NCBI GenBank assembly: GCA_963699755.1
Contig: CAVOVB010000007.1
Span: 320,001 to 384,000 of the forward strand
DNA from: an uncultured delta proteobacterium
GTDB taxonomy: Bacteria; Myxococcota_A; Polyangia; Polyangiales; Houyiibacteriaceae
Length of the DNA: 64,000 bases
Direction: 5' to 3'
Under the pieces are notes generated by a model. That model had not been told where the DNA came from. It made no database searches and worked only from the letters and a program-made list of their open reading frames with translations. The position numbers and the translations under genes are program-made. Positions within the stretch are counted from its first letter, which is position 1; each line of letters begins with the position of its first letter. This document shows positions 1,187 through 6,058 of this stretch, in pieces.

Positions 1187-2517
1187 TGGCAGCGAAGCAA
1201 CGTTCACCAGTCAGCACGGCCGAGCTGATCGTCCGAAAGCGCGAGGGCGGGAAGCTGACGAAGCAGGAGATCGACCGCCTGATCGCCGGTTTCATGAACG
1301 GCACCGTAGCCGACTATCAGATGAGCGCCTTGGCGATGGCCGTGTATTTCCAAGGCATGGACTTCGAGGAGACGGTCGACATGACCCTAGCGATGCGGGA
1401 CAGCGGCAGGGTCCTGAGCCTCGAAGAGCTCGACGCTCCGAAGGTCGACAAGCACTCGACGGGCGGGGTCGGGGATAAGGTCAGCATCTGCCTCGCCCCA
1501 ATCGTTGCTGCTTGTGGCGTGACCGTTCCGATGATCAGCGGCCGCGGGCTCGGACACACGGGCGGCACCTTGGACAAGCTCGAAGCGATTCCTGGATTTC
1601 GAGTCGACCTCACGGTACGAGAGCTCCGAGCACAGCTCCGAAAGGTCGGATGCGCGCTGATCGGCCAAACGGGCGACCTCGCGCCGGCGGACAAGCGCCT
1701 GTACGCGCTGCGGGATGTCACCGGGACGGTCGAGTCCATCCCGCTGATCACTTCGAGCATTTTGTCGAAGAAGCTCGCCGAAGGGATCGACGCGCTCGTG
1801 CTGGATGTGAAGGTGGGCAGGGGCGCTTTCATGAAATCCGAGTCGGATGCCAGGGAGCTTGCGCGATCTCTGGTACGAGTCGGGACCCTCGCCGGCAAGC
1901 GAGTCTCTGCGCTGCTGACCGACATGAACAGCCCAATTGGATATACGATCGGAAACGCGCTTGAAACTCGGGAGGCGCTCGAGATTCTTCACGGTGAAGG
2001 CCCTCACGAGCTACGGGAGCTCACCTACGCGCTTGCGGTGGAAATGCTGAGGGCCGCGGGCATTGTGAAAACCAAGTCTCAAGCGCGACGACGCATCGAG
2101 CTAGCGGTGAAGGATGGGAGTGCGCTGTTGAAAATGCGGCGGATCGTCGAAGCCCAAGGAGGAGATCCGAACGTAGTAGACACACCGGATCGGCTCGCTT
2201 TATCGCCGTACCGATCGACCATTCGAGCAACGAAAGATGGCTACATCGCGGGCATCGATCCCCTCGCCTTGGGATACGTATCGATGGGACTGGGAGCGGG
2301 CCGCGTTCGCGCCGAGGATGCAGTGGATTATGGGGCAGGAGTTCATCTGCACGTTCAGCTCGGAGATCGGGTCCGGGCTGGCGACCCACTCGCCACCTTG
2401 TATTCTTCCGAGCGAGCATTGCTGCGTCCTGGGGCTGGCCGGGCCACTCGCTCCATTCGAATCGCGAAGCGGCGCCCAACCGTGCGCGACCGGATCATGG
2501 CGACGATTCGCCGTTGA
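1186..2517 (+). CDS. deoA: Thymidine/pyrimidine-nucleoside phosphorylase
   Basis: Motifs VDKHSTGGVGDK, MISGRGLGHTGGTLDKLE, SILSKKLAEG. TGATG overlap with rnr. Confidence 0.92.
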   Translation: MAAKQRSPVSTAELIVRKREGGKLTKQEIDRLIAGFMNGTVADYQMSALAMAVYFQGMDFEETVDMTLAMRDSGRVLSLEELDAPKVDKHSTGGVGDKVSICLAPIVAACGVTVPMISGRGLGHTGGTLDKLEAIPGFRVDLTVRELRAQLRKVGCALIGQTGDLAPADKRLYALRDVTGTVESIPLITSSILSKKLAEGIDALVLDVKVGRGAFMKSESDARELARSLVRVGTLAGKRVSALLTDMNSPIGYTIGNALETREALEILHGEGPHELRELTYALAVEMLRAAGIVKTKSQARRRIELAVKDGSALLKMRRIVEAQGGDPNVVDTPDRLALSPYRSTIRATKDGYIAGIDPLALGYVSMGLGAGRVRAEDAVDYGAGVHLHVQLGDRVRAGDPLATLYSSERALLRPGAGRATRSIRIAKRRPTVRDRIMATIRR

Positions 2518-3880
2518 TCTTGCAGCCCCCTGCGGCCTGCGCGCCGATCTGCTCACGAAGACCGCGGTAGGCGGGCGCATCTACGTAGCTGGTATCGGGG
2601 AAGTCGGATCGCGCGGCGTATTGCTGGCCAAGCTCTTCGATGAAATCCGCACCGCTGGCGCGATCCAAATCAGCGAGCACGCGCCTGGCGCTGACCGGTT
2701 CCACCTCGCCGCCCCAGTCGCGTTGCGCTTCGCTGAGCGCGCTGAGAAGCGTTCGCTTTCCACCGCTGGCAAGCCGAAGCCGGACATCTGTTTCCAGAGC
2801 GAACGCCGTTCCTGCCCAATAGACGCGTTGATAGGCGCCAGTCTGGTGCATCCTGAGGCTCTCGTCTGCGAGCGGGCGCCCAGAGCCCGAACGCCGGCCG
2901 CGCTCGAAACCTTCATGGATGCGCCTCCAAGCCTGCTCGCTGCTCTGGAGGCCGCAGCGCGCTCGGAGCACTTCCTGTAGGTACGTCGCGATTCCTTCGG
3001 AAAGCCAGCGGCCGTCTGCCTGCAGTCTGGGTAGCCAGAGATGCGAGAGCTCGTGAATCGCAACCCAATCCGATTCGAGCTCAGGCGCTTCGGCATCCAT
3101 CGACGGACGGAGGAGAACCGAGGTACCACCTCCGCGTCGGACCATCCCGAAGGCGACCTCGCTCCCCCCATCGTCGACTGGCGCAATCACAAAGAGCAGG
3201 CGATCGCGAGGAAAACGACCCCCGACGAACGCTGTGGTCTGCATGGCGCGAATGAGCCAGCGGCGAATGTCTGCTTCAGGCGGTCTCGTCCCGAGATGCA
3301 CGACTTCGACCTGCGTGTTCGCAACCGAGAATGCCTGTCGATCGAAGACCCCGAACACAGCGAAGGACTCTACGAACAAAGCGCTTCGCTCCGGCTGGAA
3401 TACGCCGTTGGAGTCGCGCCAGGGCAAGGATGCTCGTCCGCCACCAGGGAGCACGAACCGTATCGATGCGTTCACCTCACTTGGAAAGGGATTGGGGCGC
3501 CACAGCCATTGTGCCTGGGAAAGGACCGCTACGGAGGAATTGGCAAGTCCCGACCATCGAGGCTCGAAGCGGGTTTCGTATTCAATGCAGCTTGAGGTCG
3601 AGACGCGATTCAAGAGAATTCGCCCGTCTCGCGTCTCCAGCGCGACGCCATCGACCCAGGCGCCTCGCAACTGCCGCGCGGCGGCCGAGTTCATGGGCTC
3701 CAAGGCAGCCAATGGCAGGCTTTTGAAGCATGCGTGAACTCGAGCGCCGTCAAGCTCGTCAAAGATTGTAACCGAGTAGTGAGCGATCGCACTCGAATGT
3801 AGCTGTTTGGGAGGGGGATTCATACGATGCGCGCATGCAACCAGGCAAGCTAACCCTGCGACTCTCCCAACGCGCATCAT
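2495..3880 (-). CDS. Putative lipoprotein zinc metallopeptidase (gluzincin, M1/M61-like)
   Basis: HELSH (HExxH) with downstream WLSEGIATY third-ligand motif and a RVYW-AG motif. N-terminal LACLVAC is lipobox-like. Confidence 0.7.
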   Translation of the reverse strand: MMRVGRVAGLACLVACAHRMNPPPKQLHSSAIAHYSVTIFDELDGARVHACFKSLPLAALEPMNSAAARQLRGAWVDGVALETRDGRILLNRVSTSSCIEYETRFEPRWSGLANSSVAVLSQAQWLWRPNPFPSEVNASIRFVLPGGGRASLPWRDSNGVFQPERSALFVESFAVFGVFDRQAFSVANTQVEVVHLGTRPPEADIRRWLIRAMQTTAFVGGRFPRDRLLFVIAPVDDGGSEVAFGMVRRGGGTSVLLRPSMDAEAPELESDWVAIHELSHLWLPRLQADGRWLSEGIATYLQEVLRARCGLQSSEQAWRRIHEGFERGRRSGSGRPLADESLRMHQTGAYQRVYWAGTAFALETDVRLRLASGGKRTLLSALSEAQRDWGGEVEPVSARRVLADLDRASGADFIEELGQQYAARSDFPDTSYVDAPAYRGLREQIGAQAAGGCKINGESSP

Positions 3881-4068
3881 GATCTAAGTCGTCAGAATCG
3901 ATGCGGTATCCCGCCCTCGATCGCAAGTGCTATCGAAGGAAAATTTCAACGAAACATCCCGGTGTGACGGACGTAGAGACTGTCATGACGCACGCTTTGC
4001 TTTTGGATTGCGATCCGGGATGGCTTTGGCTAGCGTGGCAGCATTCAAACTGGGGTATGGGATTGGTC

Positions 4069-4086
4069 CCGGACGTCCCGTTGCAT
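4069..4086 (+). promoter_or_regulatory. Weak sigma54 (-24/-12)-like element upstream of the RiPP precursor
   Basis: ccGGacgtcccgttGCat: GG-N10-GC spacing with a good TTGCA -12 box but a poor -24 box. About 60 nt before ATG 4147. Confidence 0.3.
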
Positions 4087-4146
4087 CGACGGAGAGCTGT
4101 TTGGACGCTCACGATGCTCTGACAAACAAATAGAGGGTGAACAAAC

Positions 4147-4398
4147 ATGAACGCAGCACTCAAGCACACAATCATCGCGATGGCGACGGCGGCACTGAGC
4201 GTGACCGCCGCATGCAAGTCGGACAGTGGTCCGGAAGCCTCCGAGACCACGACCGGCGCCGAGACCGCCGCGGCGGCCAAAGAAGGCGCAGCGGAAGCCT
4301 CCTGCGGTGAGGGTAATTGTGGCGCGGCCAAGGATACAGCTACAGATGCTGCAGAGGCCTCCTGTGGCGAAGGCAGCTGCGGCGGCGCGGAGAAGTAG
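4147..4398 (+). CDS. MNIO-associated RiPP precursor (HvfA/bufferin-like, Cys-Gly repeats) with probable lipoprotein signal
   Basis: 83 aa. Hydrophobic N-terminus ends VTAAC23. Two repeats, AEASCGEGNCG and AEASCGEGSCG, resemble EGKCG repeats. RBS agaggg. Lies directly upstream of DUF692. Confidence 0.85.
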   Translation: MNAALKHTIIAMATAALSVTAACKSDSGPEASETTTGAETAAAAKEGAAEASCGEGNCGAAKDTATDAAEASCGEGSCGGAEK

Positions 4399-4442
4399 GC
4401 AAACTGGGTCGCGCTGCGCCGAATGGGGGAGCACGGCATCTA

Positions 4443-4481
4443 GAGCCGCGGCGGCGTTTGTCGCCGTGGCTCGTCGTTTTT
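4443..4481 (+). terminator. Stem-loop with short U-tract between precursor and MNIO gene (leaky terminator or mRNA stabiliser)
   Basis: gagccgcggcggc-gttt-gtcgccgtggctc forms a 13-bp stem with two G-U pairs, followed by gtcgttttt. Confidence 0.6.
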
Positions 4482-4485
4482 CGGG

Positions 4486-5346
4486 ATGGGCATGAGTCCA
4501 CACGTCGCTGCAGAGGTAAGAGGAATCGGCCTCGGGTTGCGCTACGACCTCGGAACCGAGCTCTTCGAACGTCAGCCGGAGACGATTTCCTGGCTGGAGA
4601 TTCACCCCGAGAACTACCTGAATCGAGGCGGCCGCTACCAGGAGATGCTCGACCTCGCGCGTAGAGACTGGCCGATCGTCACCCATGGGCTCAGTACCTG
4701 CCTGGGCGCCCCCGAGCCGTTCGACGCGAGGTATCTGCGCGAGCTCCGAATGTTCTTGTCCGACATCGAGGTCCCTTGGCACAGCGAGCATCTGTGCCTC
4801 GGCGGAGTCGGCGACCGCTTCTTCCATGATTTGCTCCCACTGCCGTTCACGGAGGAGACGGCACGAATCGCATCTCAACGATTGATCGAGGTGAGGGATG
4901 CTATCGACCTGCCCTTGGCTTTGGAGAACGCCAGCTACTACGCGTCGCAGTGCGCGGATGGTTTGGCAGAGGCGGATTTCGTGGTCGATGTCTTGGAGCG
5001 AGCGGACGCAAAGCTGCTCTTGGACGTGAACAATATCTACGTGAACAGCCGTAACTTCGACTTCGATCCGAAAGCCTATATCGACAAGATTCCTGCGGAC
5101 CGGGTGGTTCAGATCCACGTCGCCGGTCATTTCGTTCGCGACGACGGCTTGCGTATCGACACGCATGGCGAGCCCGTGCCCGACGACGTCTACCAGCTTC
5201 TCGACTACACGCTGCGCAAGATCGGCCCGGTACCCGTCTTGCTGGAACGGGACAACAACGTGCCTCCGCTCGACGAGCTCTTGGCGGAAGTAGACGAGCT
5301 TTGGAGTATCTACCGCAACGCCACGGACGCCGATCATGCTGGCTGA
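4486..5346 (+). CDS. DUF692 family multinuclear non-heme iron-dependent oxidase (MNIO; MbnB/HvfB/BufB-like)
   Basis: Motifs GIGLGLR, WLEIHPENY, THGLS, SEHL, HDLLPLP, LENASYY, LLLDVNNIYVN, QIHVAGH, IDTHG, VLLERD. Alternative start at 4492. Confidence 0.93.
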   Translation: MGMSPHVAAEVRGIGLGLRYDLGTELFERQPETISWLEIHPENYLNRGGRYQEMLDLARRDWPIVTHGLSTCLGAPEPFDARYLRELRMFLSDIEVPWHSEHLCLGGVGDRFFHDLLPLPFTEETARIASQRLIEVRDAIDLPLALENASYYASQCADGLAEADFVVDVLERADAKLLLDVNNIYVNSRNFDFDPKAYIDKIPADRVVQIHVAGHFVRDDGLRIDTHGEPVPDDVYQLLDYTLRKIGPVPVLLERDNNVPPLDELLAEVDELWSIYRNATDADHAG

Positions 5347-6058
5347 TCGCGCCAAAGCGATGCAGCGCGTTTGCTTCGGCGCCGAGCCGAGTGAGGCGGA
5401 CCTCGAGCTCCTGGGGTCGCGTGAGCGTTGGCTGGTGTACCGAGATATGGTTCGCCACCGACTCATCCAGGTAGTCGGAGTTGCCCTCGCGCGGACCAGA
5501 GATGCGATGGGCGAGGAGGCGTTCGGATGCGCCGTCGATGAGTGGCTAAGCACGGGAGGCCCAAAGACGCGCTACCTGCGGCACGTGCCAATCGAGCTTG
5601 CAGACTTCGCGATTCCCATCTGGACGAGCAGCGACATCCCATGGCTGGCCGAGCTTGCCCATTTCGAGATCGCATGCTGGAAGGTTCGTCACGCGCCGCC
5701 CGAGCCAAAGCCGGACGCGGAGTTCGCGTTCGACCGAACACCGGTGCTCTGCACGGCAATTGAAGTCCTGCGCCTCAGCTATCCTGTGCATCTCGGGCCC
5801 ACCCCCGCGCAAGGATACGAGCCGAGTCCAACCCTCCTCTGCGTTTATCGCGACAATGACCACAAAGCGTCCACGCGGAAGCTCAACCACTTGGCCGCCG
5901 ACCTCCTCGAAGCCTGGCAAAGGGCCGAGGAAACCGTCGCCGACTCCGTCCAGCGCATCGCCGCAGAGCACCGCACTGAGCTCAGTCCAGCCTTCGTCGA
6001 AAAGCTCTCCGCCCTGATCGCCGACTTCATCGCAGTGGGACGCTGTTCGGCCCCCTAA
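5336..6058 (+). CDS. MNIO partner protein (DUF2063/HvfC/BufC-like)
   Basis: Overlaps the DUF692 gene. RWLVYRDMVRHRL...WLAELAHFE...LRLSYPVH is typical of this family. Confidence 0.75.
   Translation: MLADRAKAMQRVCFGAEPSEADLELLGSRERWLVYRDMVRHRLIQVVGVALARTRDAMGEEAFGCAVDEWLSTGGPKTRYLRHVPIELADFAIPIWTSSDIPWLAELAHFEIACWKVRHAPPEPKPDAEFAFDRTPVLCTAIEVLRLSYPVHLGPTPAQGYEPSPTLLCVYRDNDHKASTRKLNHLAADLLEAWQRAEETVADSVQRIAAEHRTELSPAFVEKLSALIADFIAVGRCSAP

Follow-up and report, generated by a model that had tools for sequence, protein, structure and literature searches.

Captophorin clusters carry genes for a Cys-repeat precursor, an MNIO and a PME1 partner (fontiphorin FonABC, gonophorin and bulbicupramide MmrABC; PMC13097082, PMC12538549). 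All characterised MNIO-PME1 cases were stated by Gadgil et al. (10.1101/2025.11.18.689057) to install 5-thiooxazole and generally to bind Cu. In the same source, the fon cluster is a minimal three-gene case, mmr being likewise of three genes (PMC12538549), and FonBC requires a small residue after Cys and, at position 3 (before Cys), processes Ala, Arg and Thr but not Phe or Glu; native FonA contains EAKCG, and so an EA-x-CG half-site. Here we describe a cassette of this kind at 4147..6058 of a 64,000-nucleotide stretch (the window) of contig CAVOVB010000007.1 from an uncultured delta proteobacterium (assembly GCA_963699755.1). Judged from its sequence, the cassette on balance probably makes a lipid-anchored captophorin, in which four core Cys would be converted to 5-thiooxazoles and copper would be trapped at the cell envelope.

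Oxazolin clusters (HvfABC(X), Buf_EGKCG; PMC11252979, PMC12452194) have in common with the window cassette an 11-residue repeat with two Cys five apart, and the window repeat shares 8/11 positions with the HvfA repeat AEGKCGEGKCG (PMC11252979). The closest experimental precedent is Lipo-NedABC (PMC13056109), with a lipoprotein signal, EGxCG repeats, an MNIO and a partner in common; NedA (Neisseria dentiae, EGKCG repeats, lipoprotein signal) was isolated from E. coli in triacylated and modified form in 2026. Bufferins of the Buf1 (DUF2282) and Buf2 types (10.1101/2024.03.18.585515, PMC12452194) share the MNIO, the DUF2063 partner, Sec export and the predicted 5-thiooxazole; sigma/anti-sigma genes are reported with Buf1 and not Buf2 clusters, and lipoprotein signals are predicted in about 16% of Buf2 precursors (PMC12452194). 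Methanobactin (MbnABC) and chryseobasin (DybAH) have in common an MNIO-superfamily enzyme acting on Cys, and DybA is also lipidated. Copper binding has been reported for oxazolin, fontiphorin, gonophorin, bufferins and bulbicupramide (PMC12452194, 10.1101/2025.11.18.689057, PMC12538549, PMC13056109).

Precursor and predicted maturation enzymes

Open reading frame (ORF) calls in the window gave the three + strand ORFs that a preliminary description of the locus, made from its sequence, had presented as a three-gene MNIO cluster (precursor 4147-4398, MNIO 4486-5346, partner 5336-6058). The features of the cassette are as follows.

4147..4398, + strand: precursor (A), 83 aa, with signal peptide, lipobox Cys23, acidic Ala-rich linker and two AEASCGEG[N/S]CG repeats
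4147..4215, + strand: predicted lipoprotein (signal peptidase II) signal ending at Cys23, from the lipobox pattern and its conservation
4291..4323, + strand: core repeat 1 (Cys53, Cys58), from the sequence
4351..4383, + strand: core repeat 2 (Cys73, Cys78), from the sequence
4486..5346, + strand: MNIO (DUF692) oxidase (B), 286 aa, PF05114 at 302 bits against a cut-off of 25
5336..6058, + strand: PME1 partner (C), 240 aa, overlapping the MNIO by 11 nucleotides (nt), DUF2063 and NGO1945_C

The precursor has five Cys (23, 53, 58, 73 and 78), the last four in the core repeats, where they had been described. The repeats and acidity first reported were confirmed, but the fifth Cys, which lies in a lipobox (TAA/C) behind a hydrophobic signal, had been missed and with it the lipid anchor, as had the linked peptidase treated below. 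The mature part is acidic (of its 61 residues, 12 are Asp/Glu and 4 are Lys/Arg). A six-frame search of the 5.35-Mb assembly for E[AG]xCGxGxC gave 4 matches, each in the precursor or its orthologue on contig C1, so the repeats are not due to chance; no repeat family of at least 14 nt was returned by a DNA repeat finder, the repetition being at the protein level.

From 54 loci of the genus, 38 distinct precursor sequences were recovered. Their first Cys stood in an [A/G][A/G]C lipobox (TAAC, TAGC, SAGC and similar) in 38/38 cases, and at position 23 in all 37 read from the full start; since Lgt and LspA genes were also found in the assembly, the mature product is likely a lipid-anchored lipopeptide. 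Net charge of the mature part ranged from -7 to -17 and core Cys number from 2 to 5, with odd numbers in 13/38. The residue before the core Cys (n=147) was Ser in 133, Asn in 5, Lys in 5, Thr in 2, Ala in 1 and Gly in 1, and the residue after it was small in 147/147 (Gly 136, Ser 10, Ala 1). Lys and Ser swap before core Cys within the genus (Lys-Cys at 5/147 sites), and congener L015 has the same leader and the same enzyme residues with Lys-Cys repeats throughout (EAKCGEGKCGEGKCG). Related lipoprotein precursors with SCG[A/E]GSCG ends were found in other families of the order, and where the sequence reaches far enough upstream, most relatives, in several families, carry a Cys-Gly lipoprotein ORF ahead of the MNIO.

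Two other precursor arrangements were recorded. Upstream of the MNIO in L077 is a long, highly acidic precursor with many EAACDG repeats; its Cys is followed by Asp or Pro, so rules of the FonB type would not allow these repeats to be processed. L160 and L161 (one genus, same family) have two tandem lipoprotein precursors upstream of the MNIO, and MopE-type repeat proteins flank L160.

A search of the window precursor against Pfam gave 0 matches (DUF2282 included). It exceeded the cut-off of NCBIfam NF050137, 'HvfA family RiPP metallophore' (RiPP, ribosomally synthesised and post-translationally modified peptide; 29.3 vs 19.5 bits), which agrees with the relation to HvfA and bufferins first suggested for this MNIO-PME1 cluster, and missed the HvfA equivalog (30.6 < 95). 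Literal EGKCG (Lys-Cys) repeats are absent from the window precursor, as are the CPxCGxG motif of chryseobasin type and the 6/12-Cys bufferin pattern, the core Cys numbering four.

The MNIO has 3BWW as its best PDB match (E 2e-48), and translation may in fact begin at its second Met, at 4492. In 125/125 aligned MNIOs, eleven columns of His, Glu, Asp or Asn were invariant, among them that of Asp256, the likely catalytic residue, and the oxidase is intact as had been described; these columns presumably supply the iron ligands and the catalytic Asp, roles mapped in part by motif position. The MNIO scored below the HvfB (291.9 < 360) and BufB (270.4 < 310) cut-offs and far below the MbnB model TIGR04159 (27.6 < 325) and the ChrH model NF050165 (66.4 < 600). 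The partner, whose overlap and DUF2063-like character were also borne out, passed PF09836 (DUF2063; 30 vs 27.2) and PF22106 (NGO1945_C; 51.4 vs 27) and fell below the HvfC equivalog cut-off (87.8 < 142).

FonB residue numbers were carried over by motif onto 3BWW and the EGKCG-linked enzymes. In FonB, Asp249 is the catalytic base and Arg15, Arg16 and Phe250 are Lys-Cys specificity residues, and the variants R16A, F250A and F250D still formed 5-thiooxazole (10.1101/2025.11.18.689057). The window MNIO keeps the catalytic Asp and the first Arg; the second Arg is replaced by Tyr20 and the Phe by Asn257. The preliminary description had held that placement of precursor and MNIO within an already characterised HvfA/bufferin clade with identical products would speak against novelty. 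In a quick, unrooted tree with long branches, built from the best matches of a few searches and lacking the characterised enzymes, the window MNIO fell in a 53-row clade (Shimodaira-Hasegawa-like approximate likelihood ratio test (SH-aLRT) 96) separate from a 58-row EGKCG-linked clade (SH-aLRT 98), mostly of Pseudomonadota enzymes with EGKCG precursors. Phe follows the catalytic Asp in 0/53 members of the window clade and 58/58 of the EGKCG clade, and the second Arg is present in 1/53 and 56/58, respectively. This supports reading the window-clade MNIOs as a distinct, order-wide subfamily. Co-variation of the precursor Ser/Lys with the enzyme Tyr/Asn was considered and rejected, since Tyr/Asn goes with Lys repeats in L015 and Arg/Phe with Ser repeats in L083 and L128; the residues follow the clade. 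Because FonB variants still make 5-thiooxazole and the residues do not track Ser vs Lys, taking the clade and its changed residues as a sign of new chemistry is unsupported.

As read from its genes, the cluster fits the genomic definition of a captophorin (PF05114 MNIO, DUF2063 PME1, Cys-small-residue precursor), and represents a variant of these that is particular to its lineage rather than a system of a new kind. E-[G/A]-x-C-G 5-mers and conserved metal and catalytic residues are also common to the cluster and the known captophorins; the window system differs in its lipoprotein signal, Lys-free acidic core, linked peptidase and separate MNIO clade, in which Tyr/His and Asn replace the Arg16/Phe250 pair. 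Though it would work like oxazolin and NedA, the cluster is by its sequence not an HvfA orthologue and was not filed as one, because the literal EGKCG, equivalog and enzyme-signature tests failed: it is without EGKCG, an adjacent DoxX and the N-terminal disulfide pair, it has a signal for signal peptidase II and not I, the HvfA, HvfB and HvfC equivalog cut-offs were all missed, and the Lys-Cys MNIO signature is lacking. NedA differs in its Lys-Cys repeats and its phylum, and a peptidase is not mentioned for NedABC in the available text of PMC13056109. By the same kind of comparison the cluster is not a Buf1/Buf2 bufferin (DUF2282, the 6/12-Cys pattern and adjacent sigma/NrsF genes are missing and the BufB cut-off was missed), nor is it methanobactin or chryseobasin, from which its enzymes are distant (28 and 66 bits vs cut-offs of 325 and 600) and which have other partners and motifs.

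The earlier proposal of a new subfamily stands as regards the MNIO clade, the missed equivalog cut-offs and the two changed specificity residues, but its novelty was overstated, most of the features being known. The idea that Ser or Asn in place of Lys implies different chemistry did not hold: the captophorin precursor table Dataset S2 (PMC13097082) contains 922 instances of EGSCG and 66 of EGNCG, one or the other being the dominant repeat in some rows, FonBC takes Ala, Arg and Thr at this position, and L015 combines Lys repeats with the same leader. Nor is the EASCG half-site new, given EAKCG in native FonA (10.1101/2025.11.18.689057). Dataset S1 of PMC13097082 includes MNIO-PME1 pairs of Sandaracinus and Polyangium; ASCGEGSCG and SCGAGSCG had 0 matches in the available Dataset S2, so precursors of the window type appear to be uncatalogued there.

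Proposed product and alternatives

Transcription of the cassette would start from ECF-type (extracytoplasmic function sigma factor) and sigma70-like promoters, and a hairpin past the precursor would lead to surplus precursor mRNA. In the cytoplasm, an MNIO-PME1 heterodimer would use Fe and O2 to oxidise Cys53, 58, 73 and 78, each ring closing onto the carbonyl of the Ser or Asn before it (-4 Da per Cys, -16 Da in total). Following Sec export, Lgt would add diacylglycerol to Cys23 and LspA would cleave, leaving an acidic lipopeptide of ~61 residues; by a rule from E. coli that may not hold in the host phylum, its Lys at +2 would point to the outer membrane. Ring thiols and nitrogens would bind Cu(I), buffering it outside the cytoplasm. 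Trimming, release or recycling of the peptide by the peptidase next door is a possible further step, though not a necessary one. Lipidation is very probable from the conserved signal, and 5-thiooxazole chemistry, by analogy with the characterised pairs, is highly probable; copper binding in vitro is quite to be expected, and copper buffering as the main job in vivo is modestly favoured. The Gly, Ser or Ala after 147/147 core Cys, together with the tolerance of FonBC for Ala, Arg and Thr, supports the 5-thiooxazole reading.

Several observations weigh against this picture. The journal version PMC13097082 cautions that 5-thiooxazole may not be the sole MNIO-PME1 product, and Ser and Asn before Cys are not mentioned among the FonBC position-3 variants in the available text of 10.1101/2025.11.18.689057. 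The window MNIO is about 39-47% identical to EGKCG-linked enzymes and stands in its own clade, and NF050137 was missed by the precursors of 7/8 tested relatives and passed by 1/8. As to copper, the Microbulbifer mmr cluster was not copper-induced and gave no robust protection, its authors being hesitant on a copper role (PMC12538549), and the 110 ORFs surveyed around the cassette in 19 relatives included no recognised copper-resistance gene, except for MopE-type repeat proteins (L160) and kinases with an FGE-sulfatase domain.

The same 5-thiooxazole lipopeptide might chiefly serve another soft metal, or act as a thiol/redox buffer in envelope stress, and this would fit the lack of copper induction of the Microbulbifer homologue (PMC12538549), the ECF-type look of the cassette promoter, the recurring neighbours (a lipoprotein peptidase and YceI, not copper genes) and a cassette that is near-always single-copy in the genus, in a stable core region near rpoC. 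Yet oxazolin, fontiphorin, gonophorin, bufferins and bulbicupramide are all reported Cu binders, and the metal ligands would come from the ring and not from the flanking Lys that the window core lacks; we regard a main job other than copper as unlikely, though far from negligible.

It is improbable that the window MNIO clade makes a different product (for example an oxazolone/thioamide, a Cys-Cys macrocycle or a ring formed through the Ser hydroxyl). This reading draws on the separate clade, the exchanged Phe and second Arg, the missed HvfB and BufB cut-offs and the Ser before 133/147 core Cys. However, the FonB Arg16/Phe250 positions tune substrate choice and not chemistry (10.1101/2025.11.18.689057), and the ChrH and MbnB models scored far lower (66 and 28 bits). 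Orthologues that keep the enzyme residues have Lys, Asn, Thr, Ala or Gly in place of Ser, whose hydroxyl is thus dispensable, and with 2-5 core Cys, odd in 13/38 precursors, a fixed Cys-Cys pairing is unlikely. That the small lipoprotein is not an MNIO substrate at all, being unmodified or disulfide-bonded and upstream by chance, could be argued from genome G014, which has an MNIO and PME1 without a precursor ORF directly upstream; this is very improbable, as most relatives with enough sequence upstream, from several families, have a Cys-Gly lipoprotein ORF ahead of the MNIO and the window precursor passes NF050137.

Distribution, linked peptidase and upstream signals

A close MNIO orthologue was present in 50/55 genomes of the genus and, at E<=1e-80, an orthologue in 120/201 genomes of the order, a likely myxobacterial one; the latter tally takes in one unpublished genome (G164), omitted from later counts (119 genomes). 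More than one MNIO type was seen in several genomes, and at L006:2-631, in another family of the order, a Buf2-like Cys-rich lipoprotein precursor stands ahead of a second, more distant MNIO. The near-complete genome G014 of the genus (L196, G014:C6 near 469225-470058) has MNIO and PME1 with neither a precursor ORF nor a peptidase directly upstream; its precursor may lie elsewhere in the genome or be lost.

Upstream of the cassette in the window, a peptidase gene and the following signals were found, together with a hairpin inside the cassette.

2495..3880, - strand: divergent M61/M1-like zinc peptidase with N-terminal lipobox-like Cys, 461 aa, from the HExxH...E motif, a predicted model and fold matches
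3951..3975, + strand: predicted ECF-sigma-type promoter motif GAAAC-N16-CGTA, from conservation in genus upstream regions
4008..4036, + strand: predicted sigma70-like promoter motif TTGCGA-N17-TAGCGT, loose pattern in 43/43 genus regions, without shuffle control
4443..4472, + strand: 13-bp GC-rich hairpin with T-rich tail in the precursor-MNIO gap, from a terminator scan

Residues H276, E277, H280, E295 and Y354 of the peptidase were invariant in 29 aligned members, 23 of which matched a lipobox-like Cys pattern. The predicted model (mean predicted local distance difference test score (pLDDT) 88.6) had M61 aminopeptidases as best fold matches (7xyo at E 1e-17, 4fgm, 8j9c), with a two-domain gluzincin fold and the HExxH...E motif in common. 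The window peptidase differs from these in being 16-18% identical, shorter and under the Pfam M61 cut-off (20.1 vs 22), and in having an FGxxRRGG / FGxxGRG stretch where, placed by spacing, the exopeptidase motif is expected; this Arg-bearing motif would be suited to an acidic substrate. Sequence search of PDB and NCBIfam with the peptidase returned no family, and in the Atlas M61 was listed for 14-25% of the members of unnamed Myxococcota clusters.

Of the 119 order genomes with the MNIO orthologue, 64 had the peptidase no more than 5 kb away and 33 had it elsewhere, while in 22 it was not found, and after removal of the 23 genomes that fed the peptidase profile it was adjacent in 41/96; kin are not independent in these counts, and fragmented assemblies blur the 'elsewhere' class. 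Four arrangements occurred: divergent upstream (33), co-directional downstream (28), convergent downstream (2) and co-directional upstream (1). The peptidase also adjoins the cassette in the Nannocystaceae record L130, and at loci of the downstream arrangement it is retained where the phosphorylase and dehydrogenase neighbours are gone. Speaking against a dedicated role are its adjacency in only 31/50 genus genomes, the lack of an intact copy in 17/50 (3 with remnants beside an intact cassette), its position elsewhere in families f7 (10/10) and f17 (5/5), the 26 genomes that have the peptidase without an MNIO match at E<=1e-80, and the fact that a single cassette inversion turns the first arrangement into the second. 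The peptidase is thus a dispensable, optional companion of the cassette. A functional link between the two is conceivable from their neighbourhood, if somewhat doubtful, and action of the peptidase on the precursor is rather unlikely. Equally speculative is an order-wide captophorin branch in which a tethered, Lys-free acidic thiooxazole peptide would have its own lipoprotein zinc peptidase to free or recycle the metal-loaded peptide. Searches of the MNIO literature on peptidase, M61, gluzincin and bufferin gave no MNIO paper with M61 or gluzincin among the matches listed, and a dedicated protease is not named in the available text of PMC12538549, 10.1101/2024.03.18.585515 or PMC11252979.

Two blocks were conserved in the aligned genus upstream regions. 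The first, GAAAC-N16-CGTA, which we take to be an ECF consensus of the B. subtilis SigW type, was exact in 37/43 distinct regions, 189-199 nt before the start (shuffles 0.1%); in 3 of the 6 regions without it an internal Met had been taken as start, and outside the genus it was found in 3/24 regions. The second, sigma70-like motif was below a strict promoter scan. ECF control of the cassette in trans is likely on this pattern. DoxX, sigma and anti-sigma genes are indeed not adjacent, as first noted, and neither is NrsF among the flanking genes, but the different regulation once drawn from this does not follow: fon and mmr also comprise three genes (10.1101/2025.11.18.689057, PMC12538549), sigma genes are not reported for Buf2 clusters (PMC12452194), and with the ECF-type motif conserved and 16 Sigma70_r4_2 matches (besides one DoxX gene) in the 5.35-Mb assembly, away from the cassette, the missing adjacent sigma gene says little. 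An ECF regulon was sought and set aside, since the strict motif had 25 matches in the assembly, about the base-composition expectation by a rough estimate, and the sole other site common to contigs C1 and C7 falls within coding sequence; no cognate sigma factor was named.

One hairpin was found by the scan against 1.4 in shuffles, which alone is not significant; a similar stem was present in every genus row printed, and a crude T-tail test was passed by 29/43. The hairpin is likely a leaky terminator or mRNA stabiliser that would skew expression to the precursor. In the predicted 5' leader (4062-4125), two small hairpins are partly conserved in the genus; the consensus fold is weak (-11.4 kcal/mol, an unfavourable covariation term, 4/17 pairs with a double change), and a conserved structure is not claimed, covariation being too weak. 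Two RNA runs, X1 and X2, gave small shares (0.11 and 0.07). In X1, from sediment, one contig equalled 4087-4337 with zero mismatches and no contig fell on the MNIO or partner, and X2 gave diverged pieces on precursor and MNIO; this is a weak hint of expression of the precursor region, the contigs being assembled and DNA carry-over being possible.

Flanking genes around the cassette include the M61-like peptidase, a nucleoside phosphorylase-like gene (called by eye and from a PYNP_C match in one homologue), an acyl-CoA dehydrogenase and rpoC; in the genus the cassette is fixed upstream of the latter two. A YceI-like gene, the second recurring envelope-type neighbour besides the lipoprotein peptidase, stood beside the cassette in 15/61 long loci from other families of the order, whether or not the peptidase was present (L071, L072, L074, L075, L088, L168, L169, L172, L177, L179, L183, L184, L185, L187, L188; some share one genome). 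A second cassette copy in the assembly, on contig C1, was rejected as a paralogue: C1 runs collinear with C7 (the window contig) along the full window, with rpoB/rpoC among the shared genes, at 77-94% identity, 289/436 kb of C7 match C1 at 83%, and contamination is 9%. Most simply, two congeneric organisms would share one bin, so duplicated genes in the assembly are not paralogues, and the DoxX, ECF sigma, Lgt and LspA genes elsewhere in it may belong to the other organism. The precursor of the C1 congener (L001:2425-2666; G000:C1 near 1677125-1677463) carries a frameshift behind the linker, and the peptidase of this congener is likewise split over two frames, both possibly through long-read sequencing error.

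Meaning for the captophorin family

New chemistry is not indicated by the locus. Gadgil et al. (10.1101/2025.11.18.689057) raise as an open question whether products of the repeat type are cleaved to smaller peptides; should the peptidase be dedicated to the cassette, this would be the first captophorin with its own protease and would answer that question, and should it act on the peptide, it would show release or turnover of repeat-type metal traps. Current precursor models mostly miss window-type precursors (7/8 tested relatives). With the cassette, the captophorins, a RiPP class that ranks with the largest, reach a near-core locus in a likely myxobacterial order, in a predicted lipid-anchored, Lys-free form, and the cassette offers a natural test of whether the MNIO Arg/Phe pair and the repeat Lys affect chemistry or only substrate choice.

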